The notes under the pieces were generated by a model, which worked only from the letters and a program-made list of their open reading frames with translations, searched no databases and was not told the origin of the DNA. Position numbers and translations under genes: made by a program. 64,000 bases of DNA. Source: an uncultured Alphaproteobacteria bacterium. Its GTDB lineage: Bacteria > Pseudomonadota > Alphaproteobacteria > CAIYWZ01. Where the stretch lies: contig CAZCFE010000001.1 in NCBI GenBank assembly GCA_964497925.1, positions 77,370 through 141,369 of the forward strand. The letters run 5' to 3'. Below, in pieces: positions 8,749 through 25,540 of this stretch; the stretch's first letter is position 1, and each line of letters starts with the position of its first letter.

Positions 8749-9312
8749 ATGTTTTTCAAAACACTAACCATTTGTATTTTCACATTATCTTGTCTTTTTG
8801 CAAAAGACCCCCCACAAATCATCCTAGGAAATCCAGATGCAAAAACAGAAGTTGTCGTTTATACAGCACTAACTTGTGCAGCTTGCGCTTTTTTACATAA
8901 AGATACCTTAAAAAAATATGAAAAAACACGAGACTTCCGAATCGTCATTCGTCACTATCCATTAGATGCGCAATCTCTAGAGGCAGCTGTAGCTGTTGAA
9001 TGTGCTTTGGCTAACCGTAAAGTCGAATTTTATGAAGAAATTTTCAATCGTCAAAATGAATTATTTGAGAAAAGCAATAACTTAAGAAGTGTTTTTGATA
9101 GGATTTCTTCAGATTTAAAAATTCCTCTTGATTGCTCAAAAACAGAAAATGTAAAGCAAGATATTTTAGAAAACTACAAACTCATCGAAAATTTAATAGA
9201 AGAAACCCCTACATTTTTTGTAGGACCATCAGATGTGCCCCTTGAAAAAAGACGCAAGGGCGCGGGAGCTTTATCAGCAGAAGAATTTGATAAATTTCTG
9301 AGAAAACCATGA
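8749..9312 (+). CDS. DsbA-family periplasmic thiol:disulfide oxidoreductase
   Basis: Signal peptide, CAAC active site in YTALTCAACAFLH, and an AGGAGG RBS. Confidence 0.7.
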   Translation: MFFKTLTICIFTLSCLFAKDPPQIILGNPDAKTEVVVYTALTCAACAFLHKDTLKKYEKTRDFRIVIRHYPLDAQSLEAAVAVECALANRKVEFYEEIFNRQNELFEKSNNLRSVFDRISSDLKIPLDCSKTENVKQDILENYKLIENLIEETPTFFVGPSDVPLEKRRKGAGALSAEEFDKFLRKP

Positions 9313-10751
9313 CCACTGTTGTTCTTTGTATCTTGGATGGGTGGGGGATTAGCCCTCAAAAACAACATAACGGCATTTATGATGCCCATACTCCAAATTA
9401 CGATCGTTTCTTATCTATATATTCAAACACATTTCTTGAGGCTTCTCAGCATGATGTTGGTCTTCCAGATCATCAAATGGGAAATTCAGAAGTAGGGCAT
9501 ATGAATATTGGGGCAGGGCGTATTATCATGCAAGATCTTCCTCGCATCAATGATGCCATCAAAAATAATCAAATCCGAACAAATAGAGCTTATGAAAAAT
9601 TAAAACACACAACCGGAGTAGTTCACTTAATGGGGCTTTTATCTGATGGGGGCGTTCATTCACACATCAACCACATTATAGAAATTGCATCACTTTTAAA
9701 AAAAGATGGTAGAGATATTGTTTTACACGCATTTTTAGATGGCAGAGATACATCTCCAAAAAGTGCAAAAAAATATATCCAGCAAATAGTAGATCATGAT
9801 ATAAAAATCGCATCAATTGGCGGAAGATATTATGGCATGGATCGAGATCAGCGTTGGGATCGCATCGAAAAATCATTTAATGCCATCAATGCTCAAAACA
9901 GTCCTTTTTTTACATGTCCTTTAGATTACATAGATCAGCAATATGCACAAAATATTACAGATGAATTTATTATGCCCGCAATTGCAAAAGAGTATCAAGG
10001 ATTTAAGAAAGAAGACGCTTTACTTGTTATGAACTTTAGAGCAGATAGAATGCGTCAGATTCTAGAGATGTTTAAAGAAAAAAATCATCTTTTTGGACTT
10101 ACAGAATACTCTCAAGAATTATCGCCTTTTATGACCACTTTTTTTCCTCCAGAACCCCTAAAAAACACCTTAGGTGAAGTTGTTGCCAACTCACACCTGA
10201 ATCAATTACGTTTAGCTGAAACTGAAAAATATGCACATGTAACATTTTTTTTTAACGGAGGGAAAGAGTCTGTTTTTGAAGGAGAGGATCGTATTTTAAT
10301 AGAATCTCCAAAAGTTGCAACATATGATCTTCAGCCGGAAATGTCGGCAGACCAAGTTTGTGAGAATTTAATCACAGCTATAGAGTCCAAGAAATATCAT
10401 TTGATCGTTGTTAATTTTGCAAATGCAGACATGGTTGGACATACAGGTATAGAATCTGCAATTACCATTGCTATTGAAAAATTAGATGATTGTTTAGGGA
10501 AAATCGAGGAATCAATTCTCAAAATGAATGGTGTTCTTATAATCACAGCTGATCATGGAAACGCGGAAGAAACATTTGATGAAACAACACATCAACCTCA
10601 CACCGCACATACGCTAAACCCCGTTCCTTTGATTTTAATTGGGAAAAACACTCCGTTGCGCAACGGAAAACTGTGTGATATTGCACCAACAATCCTAAAG
10701 TTAATGAATCTTAATATCCCGCAAGAAATGACAGGGGATGTTCTGATTTGA
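9309..10751 (+). CDS. gpmI: 2,3-bisphosphoglycerate-independent phosphoglycerate mutase
   Basis: Motifs ILDGWG, NSEVGHMNIGAGR, NFANADMVGHTG and ITADHGNAE. The start overlaps the upstream stop (ATGA). Confidence 0.9.
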   Translation: MTTVVLCILDGWGISPQKQHNGIYDAHTPNYDRFLSIYSNTFLEASQHDVGLPDHQMGNSEVGHMNIGAGRIIMQDLPRINDAIKNNQIRTNRAYEKLKHTTGVVHLMGLLSDGGVHSHINHIIEIASLLKKDGRDIVLHAFLDGRDTSPKSAKKYIQQIVDHDIKIASIGGRYYGMDRDQRWDRIEKSFNAINAQNSPFFTCPLDYIDQQYAQNITDEFIMPAIAKEYQGFKKEDALLVMNFRADRMRQILEMFKEKNHLFGLTEYSQELSPFMTTFFPPEPLKNTLGEVVANSHLNQLRLAETEKYAHVTFFFNGGKESVFEGEDRILIESPKVATYDLQPEMSADQVCENLITAIESKKYHLIVVNFANADMVGHTGIESAITIAIEKLDDCLGKIEESILKMNGVLIITADHGNAEETFDETTHQPHTAHTLNPVPLILIGKNTPLRNGKLCDIAPTILKLMNLNIPQEMTGDVLI

Positions 10752-19299: not shown

Positions 19300-20070
19300 A
19301 TGAAGCTTTCATGGAAAATTATTATATCAATGTTTTTAGTTAGCGCATTTAGCCTTACAATGCTTAGCACGCTAATGTATTATAAATATCATTCAAACCT
19401 TCAAAATTTAGTACAAGACAGATTCACAATCACATTACTTGATATCCAAAACTCAATTAAAAGTAACTTAAAGTTAGGAACTCAACTTTTTGAGATTGAT
19501 AACATCAAAAACATCATCTCCCATTCCAAAAAAAATGATCCAGATATTCTTTCCATAGAAGTTTTTGAAATTAAAAAAGGCAGAATAAATTCAATTCACA
19601 ACACTGATACACAAACAAAAATAGACCCCCTTGAAGAAAAGGGTATTCTTCACTCACAAGAGCCAATATGGAAAATTAAACAAGAAGCAACCACATTAAT
19701 TGGTGTGAACTTAAAAGATAGTATAAAAAAAGATATCGGCGGCATTGCAATCTGCTATTCAAACAAGCCCATCACTGATAATGAAAAAATTATTTTTAAC
19801 AAAATTTATCAAAGACTTGCCATTATGCTTCTTGTTATGTTGGTATTTATTTGGTTCTTAGTATCTGTCTTTTTTAGAAAAACATTCAATACGCTAAACC
19901 ATATGAAAAACTTACTATCAAATAAAAAATCAGAAAAATTAAGAGGCATGGACCAAGATTTATCTCAAGAGTTTCAAGAGACAGTATCAAAAATCCAAAA
20001 AGAAATGCAAGACCTAGAAAAAATAGAAAAATCTATAGATATGCTCACATCAATGAAAGAAAAAATATGA
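19300..20070 (+). CDS. Two-TM membrane protein with a ~145-aa periplasmic sensor-like domain and a short cytoplasmic coiled coil
   Basis: TM1 is aa 5-27 and TM2 is LAIMLLVMLVFIWFLVSVFF. The periplasmic segment has the same layout as the N-terminal module of the next gene (DILSIEVFEIKKGRINS versus EILFLAVSNTNGKILYN). The stop overlaps the next start (ATGA). Confidence 0.6.
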   Translation: MKLSWKIIISMFLVSAFSLTMLSTLMYYKYHSNLQNLVQDRFTITLLDIQNSIKSNLKLGTQLFEIDNIKNIISHSKKNDPDILSIEVFEIKKGRINSIHNTDTQTKIDPLEEKGILHSQEPIWKIKQEATTLIGVNLKDSIKKDIGGIAICYSNKPITDNEKIIFNKIYQRLAIMLLVMLVFIWFLVSVFFRKTFNTLNHMKNLLSNKKSEKLRGMDQDLSQEFQETVSKIQKEMQDLEKIEKSIDMLTSMKEKI

Positions 20071-22136
20071 TTTCTAAAGAAAGCATCATTGAAAGAAAGT
20101 TTAAAAAATTACACTTGAAACTTTTATTAAGCATTTTGACTCTTGTCATCATATCTTCATTTGCCTTGTTTTTTCTCCACTTTAAAGAATTAGAAAATCA
20201 TGTTTTACCTGAAATCGAGAAAAAAAACAAAGCAGTTGGAATGCTTTTAGAAAAAGATTTAGAACGGGCTCTAAATTATGATATACCTCTTGAAAAATTA
20301 AAACGCATGGATGTTTTTTTTCAGGATATTTTAAAGGACCATAAAGAAATTCTCTTTTTGGCCGTCTCAAACACAAACGGAAAAATTCTATACAACACAA
20401 AGTTAGATAAAAAAAAGTTGGATGTTGTAACCGTCAACAATAAGCCAAACCTAAAAATGGAAAAACATGATAATTTTTACCATTCTTCTTTTGGTCTAAA
20501 TCATCAAGAAAAAATTGCTGGGATCCTACACATTGGAACAAACGCCAATTATATCTCCTCCACCCTTAATGAAATTTCCTATGATGCTTTGATTATTTTA
20601 ATCATTTCATTAGTCATTGCTGCAGAAATTATATTTTTCATCATTCACGTCAACCTTACAAATCCAATTGAAAAATTAATAGAAGTATCTAAAAATGCAA
20701 GGATGAAAAGCGTTTCCATTAACAATATATACTCATCCAAAGATGAAATTGGATCTATTTTAAACGGCTTTAATAGTTTACTTATGGCTCTGCGCCTAAA
20801 ATCACAAACTGTATTAAAAAAAATAAAAGCTTCTGCGAAAAAATTTGATCATTTGAAAGAATTTCAAGAAATAAAAGCTAAAGCAATATCAAAAGCACAT
20901 ACGTTTGGTCATCAAAAAAACCAAAATGAATACTCACAAACACCTCACATAAGAACCCCTATTTTTCTGTTTATTTTTGCTGAAATGCTTCCCATATCCT
21001 TTCTTGCCACTTATGGATCAATTTTTTATGAACCTGTTTTTAACATTCCAAAAGACATTGTGATTGGACTGCCTGTGATTGCATTCATGCTAGTTTGTGC
21101 TTTGTTTACACCTTTTTCAGGACAGTTGGCAGATAAATATGGCTTAAAAAAAACATTCTTATGGGGTGTTGCCATTTCTGGTTTTGGATACATTGCAATT
21201 GTATTTGCAAATTCAATTCTTGCTCTTACCTTAATAAGGTGCATTAATGCAATTGGCTTTGCGTTATCATGCACAACCAGTCAGGCTATATTAGCCAGAG
21301 CAAGAACAAAAAATGGCGAGAGTTCTTCTAATACCTTTTTGTTCGCTTTTGCCTCCGCAACTCTTTGCGGAGCTCCAATTGGTGCTATTTTAGCTCAAAA
21401 TATTGGATATAATGCAACTTTTTTCCTCTCTGGTGTCATCTCGCTCATCCTTGGAGCGCTTGCTTACAAATTTATCATCGACCCACCTCAGATACGCAGC
21501 ACTATAATAGGAAATCAAATTTCAAACATGAAAATATTATTCAAAGACCCTCAGTTTTTGAAGCTATTAATCTTATCTGGACTGCCATCTAAAATTATGT
21601 ATAGTGGATTACTATTCTTTTTAGTTCCTGTTTATCTAACTAAAATTGGAACATCCCAGTCTGTTATTGGCAGAATTACAATGCTTTATGGATTATGTTT
21701 ATTAATAATGTCCCCCTTTCTTGCAAAAGTATTACCAAAATCCAATCAGACAAAATGGCACGTCTTTCTTGGCACATTATTAATGAGCTTAAGTTGTATC
21801 AGTATTATTATTTATATATATGCATTTCAAGACACCTCAATTATAAGCTTTGTGATTGCTATTTTGTTTTTAGGAATTGGCCATGCTTTACAAATAAACG
21901 CATCCATGTCAATCATCTTTACACTTTCAAATCACCACCATTCAAACTTAGGGCAAGCAACAATTATCAGCATTTATAATTCTATTGAACGTTACGGGTC
22001 TGTTTTGGGGCCGCTCATTTGTGCGGTCATTATCTCATACTACAGCATAGAATACGCACTCATTTGGATAAGTATTTTGACTTTTGTTCCAAGCCTTTTA
22101 ATGTTGCATCAATTTTATCGATGGAGAGCAAAATGA
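20067..22136 (+). CDS. Fusion protein: TM, periplasmic sensor-like domain, TM, HAMP, MFS transporter
   Basis: One uninterrupted 689-aa ORF. The HAMP-like segment NPIEKLIEVSKNA...SKDEIGSILNGFNSLLMAL spans about nt 20646-20804. The MFS core starts at about aa 295 and carries motif A GQLADKYGLKK. Confidence 0.65.
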   Translation: MISKESIIERKFKKLHLKLLLSILTLVIISSFALFFLHFKELENHVLPEIEKKNKAVGMLLEKDLERALNYDIPLEKLKRMDVFFQDILKDHKEILFLAVSNTNGKILYNTKLDKKKLDVVTVNNKPNLKMEKHDNFYHSSFGLNHQEKIAGILHIGTNANYISSTLNEISYDALIILIISLVIAAEIIFFIIHVNLTNPIEKLIEVSKNARMKSVSINNIYSSKDEIGSILNGFNSLLMALRLKSQTVLKKIKASAKKFDHLKEFQEIKAKAISKAHTFGHQKNQNEYSQTPHIRTPIFLFIFAEMLPISFLATYGSIFYEPVFNIPKDIVIGLPVIAFMLVCALFTPFSGQLADKYGLKKTFLWGVAISGFGYIAIVFANSILALTLIRCINAIGFALSCTTSQAILARARTKNGESSSNTFLFAFASATLCGAPIGAILAQNIGYNATFFLSGVISLILGALAYKFIIDPPQIRSTIIGNQISNMKILFKDPQFLKLLILSGLPSKIMYSGLLFFLVPVYLTKIGTSQSVIGRITMLYGLCLLIMSPFLAKVLPKSNQTKWHVFLGTLLMSLSCISIIIYIYAFQDTSIISFVIAILFLGIGHALQINASMSIIFTLSNHHHSNLGQATIISIYNSIERYGSVLGPLICAVIISYYSIEYALIWISILTFVPSLLMLHQFYRWRAK

Positions 22137-23122
22137 GATTATTAATTTTGTTGCTTACAGTATTTACAATAAATTTACAGGCAAGCACACAAAGCCACCC
22201 TTTTAAAATTTACATCATAACCTGGATTGGAAACACAGACTCGACAAAAGGATTTCAAGATTACTTAAAATTTAAAGACATCCCAACTGAAATAATTTTA
22301 AGAGCTGGAGACACAAAAATTGATCGCATTAAAGAGTTTAAAAAAGAGATTCGTCAACTCAAGCCAGATTTAATTTATATAGAAGGAACTCCCAGTGGAT
22401 TAGAGCTATACGGCCCACACGATAATATAGATCCTGCCAACCATATCACAGATATTCCAATTATTTCTGTCCTTCCCCCAACCCCCATTGCCTCTAAGAT
22501 GATTAAAGATTGGGGGCCAACAGGAAGAAATTTGTGCGGCGTTTCACATATGCTACCAATCAAAGCTCAGGTTCAAGCAATGAAAGATTATATGGATTTT
22601 AAAAAAATAGGAACGCTTTTTACACAAAATGAAAGCAATTCAATATCAGCCGTTAGTGATTTAGAACAGATAGGAATAAAGGAAGGATTTTCTGTCATAA
22701 AAACAGAAATTCCTATTAATCCAGAAACAAAAAAAGCAATTCCTGATGAAATTCCAAAAATATTAAAAAGCCTTGAAACAAAAGGTGTGGATTTGATTTA
22801 TATCCCAGCTGATACAACGTTATCCACAAATACAAAAATCCTAGAACAAGGAATTAACGAGATCAATATAGCATCTTTTGTTCCAATTGAGCTTCTTTTT
22901 ATAAAAACAAAAGCCTTAATGGGATTGGTTTCCAAATGGTACTCTGTAGGAGAATATGCAGGATATAAAGCAGAACAAATATTGGTCCACAAAAAAAGCG
23001 CATCTGAAATGAAGTTTGATCGCTTAGCAAACCATTCATTCTCAATTCGTAAAACAACTTTTAATAAAATTGAAAATTATCCCCCTATGAATCTTTTAAA
23101 ATATGCTGATATTGTAAATTAA
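22133..23122 (+). CDS. Periplasmic substrate-binding protein, COG2984/ABC_sub_bind-like
   Basis: Signal peptide MRLLILLLTVFTINLQA. Family-like blocks are GRNLCGVSHMLPIKAQV, KIGTLFTQNESNS, DLIYIPADTTL and GEYAGYKAEQIL. The ATG at 22133 overlaps the stop of the upstream gene (ATGA), and I discarded the track extension from 22019. Confidence 0.6.
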   Translation: MRLLILLLTVFTINLQASTQSHPFKIYIITWIGNTDSTKGFQDYLKFKDIPTEIILRAGDTKIDRIKEFKKEIRQLKPDLIYIEGTPSGLELYGPHDNIDPANHITDIPIISVLPPTPIASKMIKDWGPTGRNLCGVSHMLPIKAQVQAMKDYMDFKKIGTLFTQNESNSISAVSDLEQIGIKEGFSVIKTEIPINPETKKAIPDEIPKILKSLETKGVDLIYIPADTTLSTNTKILEQGINEINIASFVPIELLFIKTKALMGLVSKWYSVGEYAGYKAEQILVHKKSASEMKFDRLANHSFSIRKTTFNKIENYPPMNLLKYADIVN

Positions 23123-23199
23123 TGGTGCGCCCGACGGGATTCGAACCCATGGCCTCAGGATTAGGAATCCTGCGCTCTATCCTTCTGAGCTACGGGCGC
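23123..23199 (-). tRNA. tRNA-Arg (anticodon CCU), CCA encoded
   Basis: The reverse complement folds as a cloverleaf: acceptor GCGCCCG/CGGGCGC, D arm GCTC..GAGC, anticodon stem CAGGA/TCCTG with loop TTCCTAA, T arm ATGGG-TTCGAAT-CCCGT, discriminator A, CCA. Confidence 0.9.
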
Positions 23200-23431: not shown

Positions 23432-25540
23432 ATGTTTAATATTACTCGCGAAGAAATTCAATGGGGCGGACGCACACTAACCATAGAAACCGGCAAAATA
23501 GCTCGTCAAGCAGATGGAGCAGTTTTAATCACCTATGGAGAAACAATTGTGCTTTGTACGGCTGTTGGTGCAAAAAAAGCGGCGCCAGATATTGATTTTT
23601 TACCCCTGACAGTTCACTATCAAGAAAAAGCATTCGCAGCAGGTAAAATTCCAGGTGGTTTTATTAAACGTGAAGGAAGACCAAGTGAATTTGAAACTCT
23701 AAGCTCAAGACTAATTGATAGGCCAATTCGCCCTCTTTTCCCGGAAGGTTTTCATAATGAAATTCAAATTGTTTGCACAGTTTTAAGCCATGATTTAGAA
23801 AACATGTCTGATATTGTTGCTATGATTGGAGCATCAGCTGCTCTTTCAATCTCAGGTCTTCCTTTCCAAGGGCCAATTGCTGGTGTTCGTATTGGATATC
23901 AAAATGGAGAATTCATTCTCAATCCAACAATTGATGAACTTAAAGACTCCGACCTTGAACTTCTCGTAGCGGGAACAACACAAGGTATTTTAATGGTTGA
24001 GTCCGAAGCAAAAGAGCTCTCAGAAGAAGTTATGCTCAATGCTGTTATTTTTGGACACAAGCAAATGCAACCAGTTATAAACATGATCAATTCTTTAAAG
24101 AAAAAGTGTGGGAAACCAGAATGGGAGACAAACATCACTCCAATTTGGGAGCAAGATATTTATAAGAAAATTGAAAAAGAGTCATTAAAGCAAGTGGTTT
24201 TGGCTTATCAAGAAAAAGAAAAATTAAAACGCTACGGTGTTCTTAATGAATTATCAGACGCAGCAGTTGAAAAATTCTCAAGTGAAACAACTTCAAAAAA
24301 AGATGTTCAAAGCGCATTTGAGCATCTTAAATATAGAGTAATGCGTGATATGATTTTAGACAACGGGGTCAGAGTTGATGGAAGAGATACAAAAACAATT
24401 CGCCCAATTCTTTCCGAAATTGGTGTTTTACCAAGAGCTCACGGAAGCGCTCTCTTTACAAGAGGGGAAACTCAAGCTTTTGTCGTCACAACTCTTGGAA
24501 CAGGACAAGATGAGCAGTTAATTGATTCACTCGAAGGAGAATACAAAGAACGCTTTATGCTACATTACAATGCCCCATCTTATTCTGTTGGCGAAGTTGG
24601 AAGAATGTCCTCTCCTGGAAGACGTGAAATTGGTCACGGAAAATTAGCATGGAGAGCTATTCGACCAGTATTCCCAGGGAAAGATGCGTTCCCATATACA
24701 ATACGAGTTGTTGCAGAAATCACAGAAATGAACGGATCTTCTTCAATGGCTACAGTTTGCGGATCCTCTTTAGCATTAATGGATGCAGGCGTTCCTCTTT
24801 CAAGGCCTGTTGCAGGGATTGCTATGGGACTTATTAAAGAAGGTAAAAAGTTTTCTGTTCTTTCCGATATCCTTGGCGATGAAGACCACTTAGGGGATAT
24901 GGACTTTAAGGTCACAGGAACTGACAAAGGAATCACAGCTCTGCAAATGGACATTAAAATCACAAGTATTGATGAAGCCATTATGAAGCAAGCCCTTTCT
25001 CAAGCAAAAGAAGGAAGAATGCATATTTTGGGTGAAATGCAAAAAGCAATTGGTTCAGCCAGAGAAGAAGTTAGCGGAAATGCACCGCGGATTATCAGTT
25101 TCTCAATTCCAAAAGAAAAAATCAGAGAAGTTATCGGAACTGGCGGAAAAGTGATTCGTGAAATTGTTGAAGCAACTGGTGTTAAGATTGATATTGAAGA
25201 TGACGGCAATGTAAAAGTTGCAGGGGTTGACTCTGAAAAGTTAGATGATGCAATCGCATGGATTAAATCTATTGCTATGGATCCTATCGTAGGTGATATT
25301 TTAGATGTTGAAGTTGTTCGCATAGCTGATTTTGGTGCTTTTGTCTCATTCTGGCGTGGACGTGACGGTTTAGTCCACATTAGCGAACTCGCTCATAAAC
25401 GAGTAGAAAAAACAACCGATGTTGTAAAAATGGGAGATAAATTCCAAGTAAAGGTTATTGGAATTGAGGAAAAAGGCAAAATCAGACTCAGTCTTAAAGC
25501 AATGATCGAAAAACCAGCTACGGAACAACAAGCATCATGA
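23432..25540 (+). CDS. pnp: Polyribonucleotide nucleotidyltransferase (PNPase)
   Basis: 702 aa with two RNase PH domains, a KH domain ([10 protein letters not shown]) and an S1 domain (FGAFVSF...GLVHISEL). Confidence 0.95.

Follow-up and report, generated by a model that had tools for sequence, protein, structure and literature searches.

HAMP domains are understood as converters that feed enzymatic or chemoreceptor outputs, and a gene in which such a domain is followed by a secondary transporter raises the question of what a transporter might be doing in the output position. We analysed a gene of this kind in a 64,000-nucleotide stretch of DNA from an uncultured alphaproteobacterium (hereafter the window, whose own numbering is used throughout). 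The original prediction had described its product as a sensor module and HAMP domain fused to a complete MFS transporter, and had proposed either ligand-gated transport or a transceptor.

The cassette and its fusion protein

The open reading frame was exactly as claimed: it occupies positions 20067–22136 on the forward strand, starts with ATG and encodes 689 residues without interruption. This gene (gene 2) does not stand alone but is the middle member of a cassette of three genes that is conserved and translationally coupled. The features of the cassette and of the protein encoded by gene 2 are as follows.

19300..20070 (+), gene 1: two-TM protein of 256 aa (open reading frame; no Pfam family matched; free paralogue of the gene 2 sensor module)
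20067..20070 (+), ATGA overlap of the gene 1 stop and the gene 2 start (read from the sequence)
20067..22136 (+), gene 2: sensor-HAMP-MFS fusion protein of 689 aa (open reading frame, MFS_1 match, full-length relatives, structure model)
20115..20177 (+), TM1 of the fusion, aa 17–37 (hydrophobic run LKLLLSILTLVIISSFALFFL, inside model helix 7–70)
20178..20573 (+), periplasmic Cache/PDC-like domain, aa 38–169 (model with long helix, short helix and five strands; sCache_3_2 in relatives)
20574..20651 (+), TM2, aa 170–195 (hydrophobic run YDALIILIISLVIAAEIIFFIIHV, part of model helix 160–212)
20652..20801 (+), HAMP-like helix-connector-helix, aa 196–245 (sub-threshold in Pfam; family matches; profile match to 9trk_A; consensus signature)
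20802..20936 (+), Lys-rich helical linker, aa 246–290 (model helices 227–259 and 261–277; ends before R296-x-P-x-F300)
20937..22133 (+), MFS core with 12 TM helices, DHA1-like, aa 291–689 (MFS_1, model, nearest structures, consensus motifs)
22133..22136 (+), ATGA overlap of the gene 2 stop and the gene 3 start (read from the sequence)
22133..23122 (+), gene 3: PF04392 periplasmic solute-binding protein of 329 aa (N-terminal signal-peptide-like segment MRLLILLLTVFTINLQA; ABC_sub_bind, E = 4.8e-17)

The first description of the locus did not include the context provided by genes 1 and 3. The order that it gave for the gene 2 product, TM1, Cache-like domain, TM2, HAMP and MFS, is real and conserved, as seen in Pfam matches of relatives, in profile comparison and in the structure model. 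The single-chain model (pLDDT 89.8, pTM 0.87) opens with a long N-terminal helix (residues 7–70) and a helix at residues 81–91, which are followed by five beta strands within residues 95–159. Helix 160–212 comprises TM2 and its continuation into AS1 of the HAMP-like region, helix 227–259 corresponds to AS2, and twelve TM helices span residues 292–688 with a central loop at 470–494. Residues R296 and F300, located just before the first helix of the MFS core, are conserved; the family consensus at this position is RxPLF and the window protein reads RTPIF.

An assembly-fused gene pair had been raised as a concern in the original prediction. Such an artefact could take the form of a sensor gene and a transporter gene that mis-assembly or a sequencing error had merged, or of a pseudogene decaying in an AT-rich symbiont. 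It would fit the degenerate HAMP region and some degenerate motif positions of the window protein, the AT-rich genome (local GC of approximately 32%) and the closest relatives identified by PNPase, which are the endosymbiont-like Holosporales and Paracaedibacteraceae. Against this, an independent assembly carries an uninterrupted orthologue of 690 residues with 83% identity, and the full-length architecture is present in 80 other species genomes distributed over the alpha-, beta- and gammaproteobacteria, with the sensor module alone represented by 866 protein clusters at E ≤ 1e-10. Comparison with the 83% orthologue gave dN/dS values of 0.06–0.17 across every domain of gene 2, and the structure model is confident. 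Because the full-length architecture recurs in 80 species genomes, gene 2 is not an assembly fusion, and we rejected an artefact of either form as extremely improbable. The low dN/dS values of the gene 2 domains, together with those of gene 1 (0.095) and gene 3 (0.068), demonstrate that all parts of the cassette are under purifying selection.

The sensor modules and the transporter core

The proposed HAMP domain is significant in relatives of the window protein, whereas in the window protein itself the match to PF00672 (residues 197–243; 13.7 bits, E = 0.083) falls below the gathering cut-off of 25. HAMP was matched in 26 of 70 members of the gene 2 family at E ≤ 0.01 (best 7.5e-10, Pfam), the family profile matched the HAMP domain of a histidine-kinase chimera in the PDB (9trk_A, E = 1.4e-8), and the family consensus retains the HAMP signature P...GDF...DEiG. 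In the window protein AS1 begins at Pro198 and AS2 begins at DEIG; the connector GDF, present in 60–80% of the family, is replaced by KSV and the conserved glycine is missing. The model places a helix-loop-helix at the HAMP position, directly after TM2. For the PDC/Cache-like stretch the outcome was similarly divided: no Pfam Cache match was obtained for the periplasmic segment of the window protein, and sCache_3_2 was matched in 21 of the 70 relatives (best 2.4e-9, Pfam). The modelled secondary structure of this segment, a long helix and five strands, appears to fit the Cache/PDC layout. Since neither domain is significant in the window protein alone, both calls are drawn from its relatives.

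The N-terminal 240 residues weakly resemble histidine-kinase sensor regions (HK_near_YfiR_like, E = 8e-7, and the WalK N-terminus; NCBIfam). A shallow N-terminal profile returned only coiled-coil noise against the PDB, and both fold searches mainly picked up the MFS core and gave no information on the sensor part. Pfam matched neither HisKA/DHp nor HATPase_c after the HAMP region, where the MFS core follows instead. A histidine kinase, chemoreceptor or cyclase identity for the gene 2 product was rejected, as Pfam identified no such domain in it.

The product of gene 1 has a layout of TM1 (approximately residues 5–27), a periplasmic part (28–172), TM2 (173–193) and a helical cytoplasmic tail. 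Comparison of the gene 1 family profile (A8, 74 sequences) with that of the sensor module (A2) by hhalign gave a probability of 98.4% (E = 5e-15) over 246 columns, in an alignment spanning TM1 to the HAMP-like region, and the sensor profile matched all proteins of the gene 1 type. Direct BLASTP of gene 1 against the sensor module returned nothing, so that the paralogy is seen only by profile-profile comparison. The two modules also occur naturally fused. Single chains comprising partner, sensor and MFS core were identified in P0005, whose extra N-terminal module is homologous to gene 1, and at loci L017, L025, L066 and L074; approximately 15 of the best 150 representatives are chains of this kind, with 890–1,000 residues. 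The model of one natural three-part chain (pLDDT 91.4, pTM 0.89) begins with two modules that share an identical pattern of secondary structure and ends with 12 TM helices. From these comparisons, gene 1 probably encodes the heterodimer partner of the gene 2 product.

The MFS core is complete, as predicted, with MFS_1 matched at residues 311–624 (E = 5.6e-39; 134.5 bits, cut-off 33.4; Pfam) and motif A present as GQLADKYGLKK. The modelled helices and motif A agree with the MFS layout of two six-helix bundles and a motif A between TM2 and TM3. Motif C, located in TM5, was reportedly defined by Paulsen et al. in 1996 as GxxxGPxxGG, the antiporter motif, and motif G, in TM11, as GxxxGPL. In the family consensus, motif A and the arginine of motif B are retained, as are motif C (CGpAIGGILADRIG), motif G (GsvlGPl) and a glutamate in TM1. 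Motif G is also retained in the window protein (GSVLGPL), in which motif C is weakened (CGAPIGAILAQNIG) and lacks D444 and R445. The nearest solved structures to the core are VMAT1/2, VAChT, NorA, SotB and MdfA, and target-normalised TM-scores to solved MFS/DHA1 proteins ranged from 0.73 to 0.87, with DHA1 antiporters as the best matches. No curated NCBIfam model reached its cut-off for gene 2, all DHA matches being far below.

Based on this resemblance, we assign the MFS core as closest to DHA1 drug/amine:H+ antiporters. Profile and fold matches to DHA1 proteins (VMAT1/2, VAChT, NorA, SotB, MdfA and YajR) were the best obtained; these share the 12-TM MFS fold, motifs A, B, C and G and the acidic TM1 residue with the consensus of the gene 2 family, at identities of only 13–20% between the DHA1 structures and gene 2. 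Unlike gene 2, the DHA1 proteins have no N-terminal TM-Cache-TM-HAMP module, no paralogous sensor partner and no dedicated binding protein. With MFS_1 matched in 70 of 70 family members, the motifs and TM1 glutamate in the consensus and the structural matches to DHA1 proteins, the transporter core looks functional. DHA1 relatives are mostly exporters that move substrate out of the cytoplasm. The sub-threshold HAMP match, the change from GDF to KSV and the missing D444 and R445 of motif C suggest that HAMP-to-MFS coupling may be weakened in the lineage of the window protein.

The binding protein and the genomic context

Proteins of the PF04392 family normally serve ABC importers, and TrpXYZ-type importers have a binding protein of the same family as gene 3. 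Unlike those of TrpXYZ, gene 3 scored far under the cut-off of the TrpX-like equivalog model (77.9 bits against 390; NCBIfam), and neither the window cassette nor the recurrent neighbours of 82 loci within approximately 5 kb contained ABC permease or ATPase genes. A conventional ABC importer encoded with gene 3 was rejected on these grounds; the genome may still encode an ABC partner at another locus. The nearest solved structures to the gene 3 product are 3LFT, 6HNI and 3LKV. All solved PF04392 proteins bind nutrients, namely L-Trp, L-Tyr and L-Phe (PMC10443332).

The order of partner, fusion and binding protein was observed in the window, in the 83% orthologue and in relatives of 24–38% identity located in unrelated genomic neighbourhoods. 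The binding-protein gene lies directly downstream of the fusion gene in 76 of 82 loci; the partner gene is the immediate upstream neighbour in 72, and in four the partner forms the N-terminal part of the transporter chain. The architecture is not rare, and cultured Proteobacteria with full-length copies are numerous; they include Iodobacter, Massilia, Roseateles, Thalassospira, Tistlia, Chitinimonas and Thiobaca. A word-indexed protein search returned only seven relatives with gene 2 and eight with gene 1. Clustering of neighbouring genes over the 82 loci left one residual cluster, which corresponds to antisense noise.

In the window, the cassette is flanked by a UbiH-like gene and by tRNA-Arg/PNPase, and the open reading frames and Pfam matches of the cassette itself include no kinase, cyclase or ABC gene. 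The promoter scan (15 sites, fewer than the 21.7 in shuffled controls) and the terminator scan (six matches where 2.3 were expected, with none located at the cassette's 3' end) were uninformative.

A proposed mechanism and its alternatives

LuxP-LuxQ, TorT-TorS, MBP-Tar and YfiR-YfiN are binding-protein-fed sensors with PAS/Cache-type periplasmic domains and HAMP domains. The cassette appears to follow the same route, from binding protein through a periplasmic domain and TM2 to HAMP. These sensors deliver their output to a kinase, chemoreceptor or cyclase and are homodimers, whereas the apparent output of the cassette is a transporter and its sensor probably pairs two paralogous chains as a heterodimer. 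The pair of hypotheses in the original prediction, ligand-gated transport or a transceptor, is still the right one, and the cassette context changes the likely mechanism: given this context, the partner protein probably contributes to the HAMP bundle, and sensing of the ligand probably goes through the binding protein.

We propose, tentatively and with somewhat less than even confidence, that the transporter is gated by a heterodimeric Cache-TM-HAMP module, to which the binding protein signals the presence of ligand. The three genes would encode one membrane machine, a secondary transporter under the control of a periplasmic binding protein. The secreted PF04392 protein would capture a small periplasmic ligand and would dock on the paired Cache-like domains of the 256-residue protein and of the N-terminal module of the 689-residue protein. 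The two paralogous modules would heterodimerise, with their TM2 helices running on into a shared four-helix HAMP bundle. Ligand-driven rearrangement of this bundle would travel along the helical linker and, by way of the conserved R-x-P-L-F motif (RTPIF in the window protein), reach TM1 of the MFS core. The inward/outward equilibrium of this DHA1-type, H+-coupled core would then shift, and transport, in an inferred direction, would be switched on or off. Because of the binding-protein family and the VMAT-like core, our guess is that the substrate could be an aromatic amine or amino acid. Gated transport is favoured by the conserved cassette, the paralogy of the partner with the sensor module, the natural single chains, the HAMP signature kept in the family, the functional appearance of the transporter core, the purifying selection on all domains and both partner genes, and the lack of an alternative output or energiser in the cassette. 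It is disfavoured by the mostly exporting nature of DHA1 relatives, for which the need for a binding protein is not obvious. Adjacent HAMP-SpoIIE and cyclase genes and a DUF5939 variant hint at signalling, instead or besides.

As in TRAP and TTT systems, the PF04392 protein could instead deliver its ligand directly to an MFS core that imports it by H+ coupling, with both Cache-TM modules serving mainly as a docking scaffold (like Q/TctB subunits) and not as signal converters. The cassette has the required tripartite set, consisting of a binding protein that lacks an accompanying ABC permease or ATPase, a small membrane protein and a large 12-TM transporter. Similarly, TRAP, TTT and TAXI-GltS systems combine a binding protein with a small membrane component and a large secondary transporter without an ATPase, their genes are translationally coupled, and their small and large components are sometimes fused, as in TRAP QM and in some species with the cassette. 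The nutrient ligands of solved PF04392 proteins (PMC10443332) would suit uptake, and a 2024 preprint indicates that further secondary-transporter families can recruit binding proteins (10.1101/2024.11.27.625746). Only the tripartite logic is common to the two groups: the cassette encodes an MFS_1 membrane protein, of the rocker-switch type and unrelated to the elevator-type DctM, TctA and GltS, and a PF04392 binding protein in place of DctP, TctC or TAXI, and its HAMP domain is a further difference. A passive scaffold would not need the canonical HAMP signature that the family keeps, and the core has motifs C and G and best matches DHA1 antiporters, which typically move substrate out of the cytoplasm. 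As no rocker-switch transporter is known to take substrate from a binding protein (10.1101/2024.11.27.625746), among these other points, we regard import of this kind as improbable.

Another alternative is a signalling complex, a transceptor or co-sensor in which the MFS core acts as a sensor or scaffold and not as a net transporter, and which would report periplasmic ligand or flux to HAMP-PP2C phosphatases (partner-switching) or to nucleotide cyclases. In 17 of 82 loci, a HAMP-SpoIIE (PP2C) phosphatase gene of the same strand adjoins the cassette; it directly replaces the binding-protein gene in L016 and L022, and in L016 it is followed by an RsbW-like kinase gene; Cache-HAMP class III cyclases adjoin L017, L025, L057, L164 and L166; and one MFS variant carries a C-terminal DUF5939. 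UhpC is a transporter-like sensor and offers a precedent. CbrA (SLC5 and histidine kinase; PMC8871633) offers another. Like CbrA, the proteins UhpC, Mep2 and NRT1.1 unite a transporter fold with signalling elements in a single protein or complex. CbrA uses its transporter domain for input and its kinase for output, whereas in gene 2 the Cache-like and HAMP-like parts precede a transporter in the output position. No signalling gene adjoins the cassette in approximately 80% of loci, the window locus among them, the cassette has no known output domain (Pfam), and motifs A, B, C and G and the acidic TM1 residue are conserved as expected of an active carrier. We consider a purely signalling role unlikely on this basis.

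In support of the earlier claim that the architecture is uncharacterised, the literature searched, which covered few subscription journals, yielded no account of a Cache/HAMP-MFS fusion or of a binding-protein-MFS system. The cassette might represent an unrecognised class, comprising the first binding-protein-coupled rocker-switch MFS, the first HAMP-driven transporter and a heterodimeric HAMP bundle of paralogous Cache-TM modules; we consider this broader proposal doubtful. Before TAXI-GltS, binding proteins were known only with TRAP and TTT among secondary transporters, and all three systems have been argued to be of the elevator type (10.1101/2024.11.27.625746). If true, the existence of such a class would answer the open question of whether binding proteins work only with elevator-type carriers (10.1101/2024.11.27.625746). 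If the output of the HAMP-like region is indeed a secondary transporter, the HAMP paradigm would extend to membrane transport that an extracellular ligand controls directly, at the post-translational level. The family is testable in many cultured Proteobacteria, and its natural three-part fusions are suited to structural work.

Gene context and conservation of the fusion

The original prediction, a sensor module and HAMP domain fused to a complete MFS transporter, describes the architecture of the reading frame correctly but missed its context. The frame lies between two further genes, with which it forms a three-gene cassette:

19300–20070, forward strand: gene 1, a protein of 256 aa and two TM helices that matches no Pfam family (hereafter the small protein)
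20067–22136, forward strand: gene 2, the sensor-HAMP-MFS fusion protein
22133–23122, forward strand: gene 3, a PF04392 (ABC_sub_bind) periplasmic binding protein of 329 aa (E = 4.8e-17) with a signal-peptide-like N-terminus

Start and stop codons overlap as ATGA at both junctions, implying translational coupling. A tRNA-Arg (anticodon CCT; 23123–23199, reverse strand), the sole tRNA in the 64-kb window, starts one base past the gene 3 stop. The same trio was identified, among unrelated flanking genes, around two relatives of the fusion protein at 26% (P0003) and 38% (P0075) identity and around a variant relative, P0074, with a dCache_1-guanylate-cyclase gene (L166:9789–12245) after its cassette. 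Of the 82 loci compared, 76 have the binding-protein gene immediately downstream of the fusion gene and two have it just upstream of the pair. The small protein is encoded directly upstream in 72 loci and is fused in frame to the transporter N-terminus in four; two loci lie at contig ends and could not be assessed, and no copy was found in one. In the last three it adjoins the transporter and its match is truncated (L034, L039), or its best match is a second downstream copy (L038). Near one relative, an intein bearing a LAGLIDADG endonuclease domain lies within a ribonucleotide reductase large-subunit gene (L068:9466–11943).

As first read, gene 2 is one ATG-initiated frame of 689 aa without interruption. 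That it might be an assembly-fused gene pair, or a pseudogene, is refuted and can be regarded as extremely improbable because several observations converge. An orthologue of 690 aa (83% identical) occurs with the same flanking genes in an independent assembly, and relatives at 22–26% identity span 93–94% of the fusion protein. Our scan of one genome per species yielded 263 confirmed relatives, the best 80 of which are all full length with the same architecture (query residues ~3–683, profile positions ~3–21 to 678–697) and belong to the alpha-, beta- and gammaproteobacteria. Among the genera in culture that carry the fusion are Iodobacter, Roseateles, Massilia, Mitsuaria, Tistlia, Thalassospira, Chitinimonas, Thiobaca, Aquibaculum and Ideonella. 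A profile limited to the 287 N-terminal positions was run against 1.84 billion representative proteins; 2431 clusters passed E ≤ 1e-3, of which 866 also passed E ≤ 1e-10 and 135 passed E ≤ 1e-30. Of the complete proteins in the top 150, nearly all measured 640–770 aa (sensor plus MFS) or 890–1000 aa. Approximate dN/dS values against the 83% orthologue, with dS near saturation, were 0.056 for the sensor, 0.166 for HAMP, 0.060 for the linker and 0.060 for the MFS part.

Composition and structural model of the fusion protein

The predicted segments were all located in the translation: TM1 (aa 17–37), a periplasmic stretch, TM2, a Pro-initiated AS1 and DEIG-initiated AS2 (the first and second HAMP helices), a Lys-rich linker and motif A GQLADKYGLKK. 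The MFS core was confirmed by a Pfam scan (MFS_1 at aa 311–624, E = 5.6e-39, 134.5 bits against a cut-off of 33.4). The HAMP and Cache/PDC-like assignments hold through relatives but not in the window protein alone, where the HAMP match (aa 197–243, E = 0.083) reaches 13.7 bits against a Pfam cut-off of 25 and the Cache-like stretch is not significant. Among 70 diverse family members, MFS_1 was detected in all, HAMP in 26 (best E = 7.5e-10) and sCache_3_2 in 21 (best E = 2.4e-9). Positions 194–259 of the 87-sequence family profile match the HAMP domain of a histidine-kinase chimera (9trk_A, E = 1.4e-8), and the family consensus after TM2, P-l-r...G-D-F...D-E-i-G...N, reads as a canonical HAMP signature. 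We consider HAMP a family-level assignment, with this copy below the Pfam threshold; the window protein keeps Pro198 and DEIG, and its connector reads KSV in place of GDF (20706–20714, aa 214–216). An NCBIfam scan of the fusion protein returned no family at or above its cut-off; aa 13–240 weakly resemble histidine-kinase sensor regions (HK_near_YfiR_like, E = 8e-7, and the WalK N-terminus).

The AlphaFold2 model built on the 87-sequence family alignment (mean pLDDT 89.8, pTM 0.87) places helix 7–70 (TM1 into a long periplasmic helix), helix 81–91 and five strands (aa 95–159) in the sensor half, a predicted secondary structure that resembles the PDC/Cache pattern. These are followed by helix 160–212 (TM2 plus AS1), a loop, helices 227–259 (AS2) and 261–277, and twelve TM helices between aa 292 and 688.

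DHA1-type H+ antiporters (VMAT1/2, VAChT, NorA, SotB, MdfA and YajR) top both profile and fold searches, with profile E-values down to 2.7e-24 and target-normalised TM-scores of 0.73–0.87 at 13–20% identity. The family consensus retains motif A (G.wsdR.G.Rr), the motif B arginine (WR..A.GYA), motif C (CGpAIGGILADRIG), motif G (ERlGsvlGPl) along with a conserved TM1 glutamate; retention of these features speaks for a functional carrier core. The names of these motifs and their tie to 12-TM antiporters reportedly go back to Paulsen and co-workers in 1996. The C-terminal part is an MFS transporter that appears DHA1-like, with the DHA1 motifs present at family level and no curated subfamily model passing. 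In the window protein, D444/R445 of motif C are lost and QN is found there (21396–21401). Together with KSV for GDF, this substitution may stem from lineage-specific drift, the genome being AT-rich, or may signify a change in coupling.

The small protein as a second sensor module

BLASTP of the small protein against the sensor half of the fusion gave no match. With hhalign, a profile of 74 small proteins and the sensor-module profile aligned at 98.4% probability (E = 5e-15); the 246 aligned columns run from TM1 to the HAMP-like hairpin. Every small protein was matched by the sensor profile, and a few weakly matched dCache_1 or sCache_3_2. By these profile alignments, the small protein is a second sensor module. 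The relative P0005 (951 aa) carries an extra N-terminal module homologous to it (BLASTP E = 5e-7), and such three-part chains make up ~15 of the top 150 representatives. The P0005 model (pLDDT 91.4, pTM 0.89) contains two modules with an identical secondary-structure pattern, then a 12-TM core. Because HAMP forms a dimeric four-helix bundle and the free module is paralogous to the fused one, the parsimonious reading is that the two would pair as a heterodimer, with a single sensor pair for each transporter.

Two further relatives, P0070 (1240 aa) and P0143 (1176 aa), have tandem sensor modules (four matched stretches) before a single MFS core; module number is therefore variable. Additional sensor-module copies lie 3' of the cassette in five loci (~8116–10900 in L038 and L061, ~8037–10388 in L019 and L027, 8995–10458 in L047), and Pfam recognises no output domain in these reading frames. 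They may represent another sensor pair that lacks a transporter.

Proposed mechanism, alternatives and relation to known systems

We tentatively propose, as a possibility we rate at just under even, that the binding protein acts through a heterodimeric Cache-TM-HAMP pair on a gated MFS carrier. The binding protein would read a periplasmic ligand and dock on the two Cache domains. Through the heterodimeric TM2/HAMP bundle, docking would move the helical linker and, entering MFS TM1, the R296-x-P-x-F300 segment that is strongly conserved in the family; this movement would gate a DHA1-like H+-coupled carrier. LuxP-LuxQ, TorT-TorS and MBP-Tar are precedents for such input logic; the transporter output would be new. 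The three PF04392 proteins of solved structure have L-Trp, L-Tyr or L-Phe as their ligand (PMC10443332), and the structures nearest gene 3 are 3LFT, 6HNI and 3LKV. Based on those ligands and the VMAT-like core, an aromatic amine or amino acid is a reasonable first guess at the ligand or substrate, and no more.

TRAP-like uptake, in which the binding protein hands substrate to the MFS protein, would also suit the three-part layout and the lack of ABC genes in the cassette and among its recurrent neighbours; retention of a canonical HAMP and an antiporter-type core make this unlikely. A signalling complex or transceptor draws on neighbouring genes: a HAMP-SpoIIE (PP2C) gene adjoins the cassette on the same strand in 17 of the 82 loci (L004:9227–11320, L016:7049–9235, L022:7040–9220 and 14 others), directly 3' of the fusion where the binding-protein gene is absent (L016, L022) and followed in L016 by an RsbW-like kinase gene (HATPase_c_2, 9239–9688). 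Cache-HAMP class III cyclases adjoin several cassettes, including those of L017, L025, L057 and L164, and P0074 (1117 aa, L166:5001–8354) carries a C-terminal DUF5939 after its MFS core. However, no such gene adjoins the cassette in most loci, the window included, and the family conserves the transport motifs, so we give this reading a low probability too. The HAMP-SpoIIE phosphatase is a membrane protein, and its presence suggests that some of the species connect the cassette to partner-switching signalling.

The original interpretation, ligand-gated transport or a transporter-like receptor, is partly supported, and operon context enriches it substantially. We rejected a TRAP/TTT transporter, an ABC importer and a histidine kinase, as their defining components were looked for and are absent, ABC genes both from the window cassette and from the recurrent neighbours in the 82 loci. 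Functionally, the cassette would combine the input half of binding-protein-fed sensors with a secondary carrier.

The window PNPase (23432–25540, forward strand) is 84% identical to that of an uncultured alphaproteobacterial MAG and ~57–66% identical to those of Paracaedibacteraceae and Holosporales MAGs. With a regional GC of ~32%, this points to a probably AT-rich and possibly host-associated alphaproteobacterium, in which the whole cassette appears to be kept under purifying selection.

A full-text literature search, with subscription journals, InterPro and TCDB outside its scope, found no description of the sensor-HAMP-MFS architecture, and database annotations go no further than "MFS transporter" or "HAMP domain-containing protein". 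The individual components are known; together they form a conserved, widespread combination that has no description in the literature searched. According to the 2024 preprint on TAXI-GltS (10.1101/2024.11.27.625746), soluble binding proteins had until then been known only with TRAP and TTT transporters, and the same preprint raises the question of whether elevator mechanics are required, on which an MFS example would have a direct bearing.
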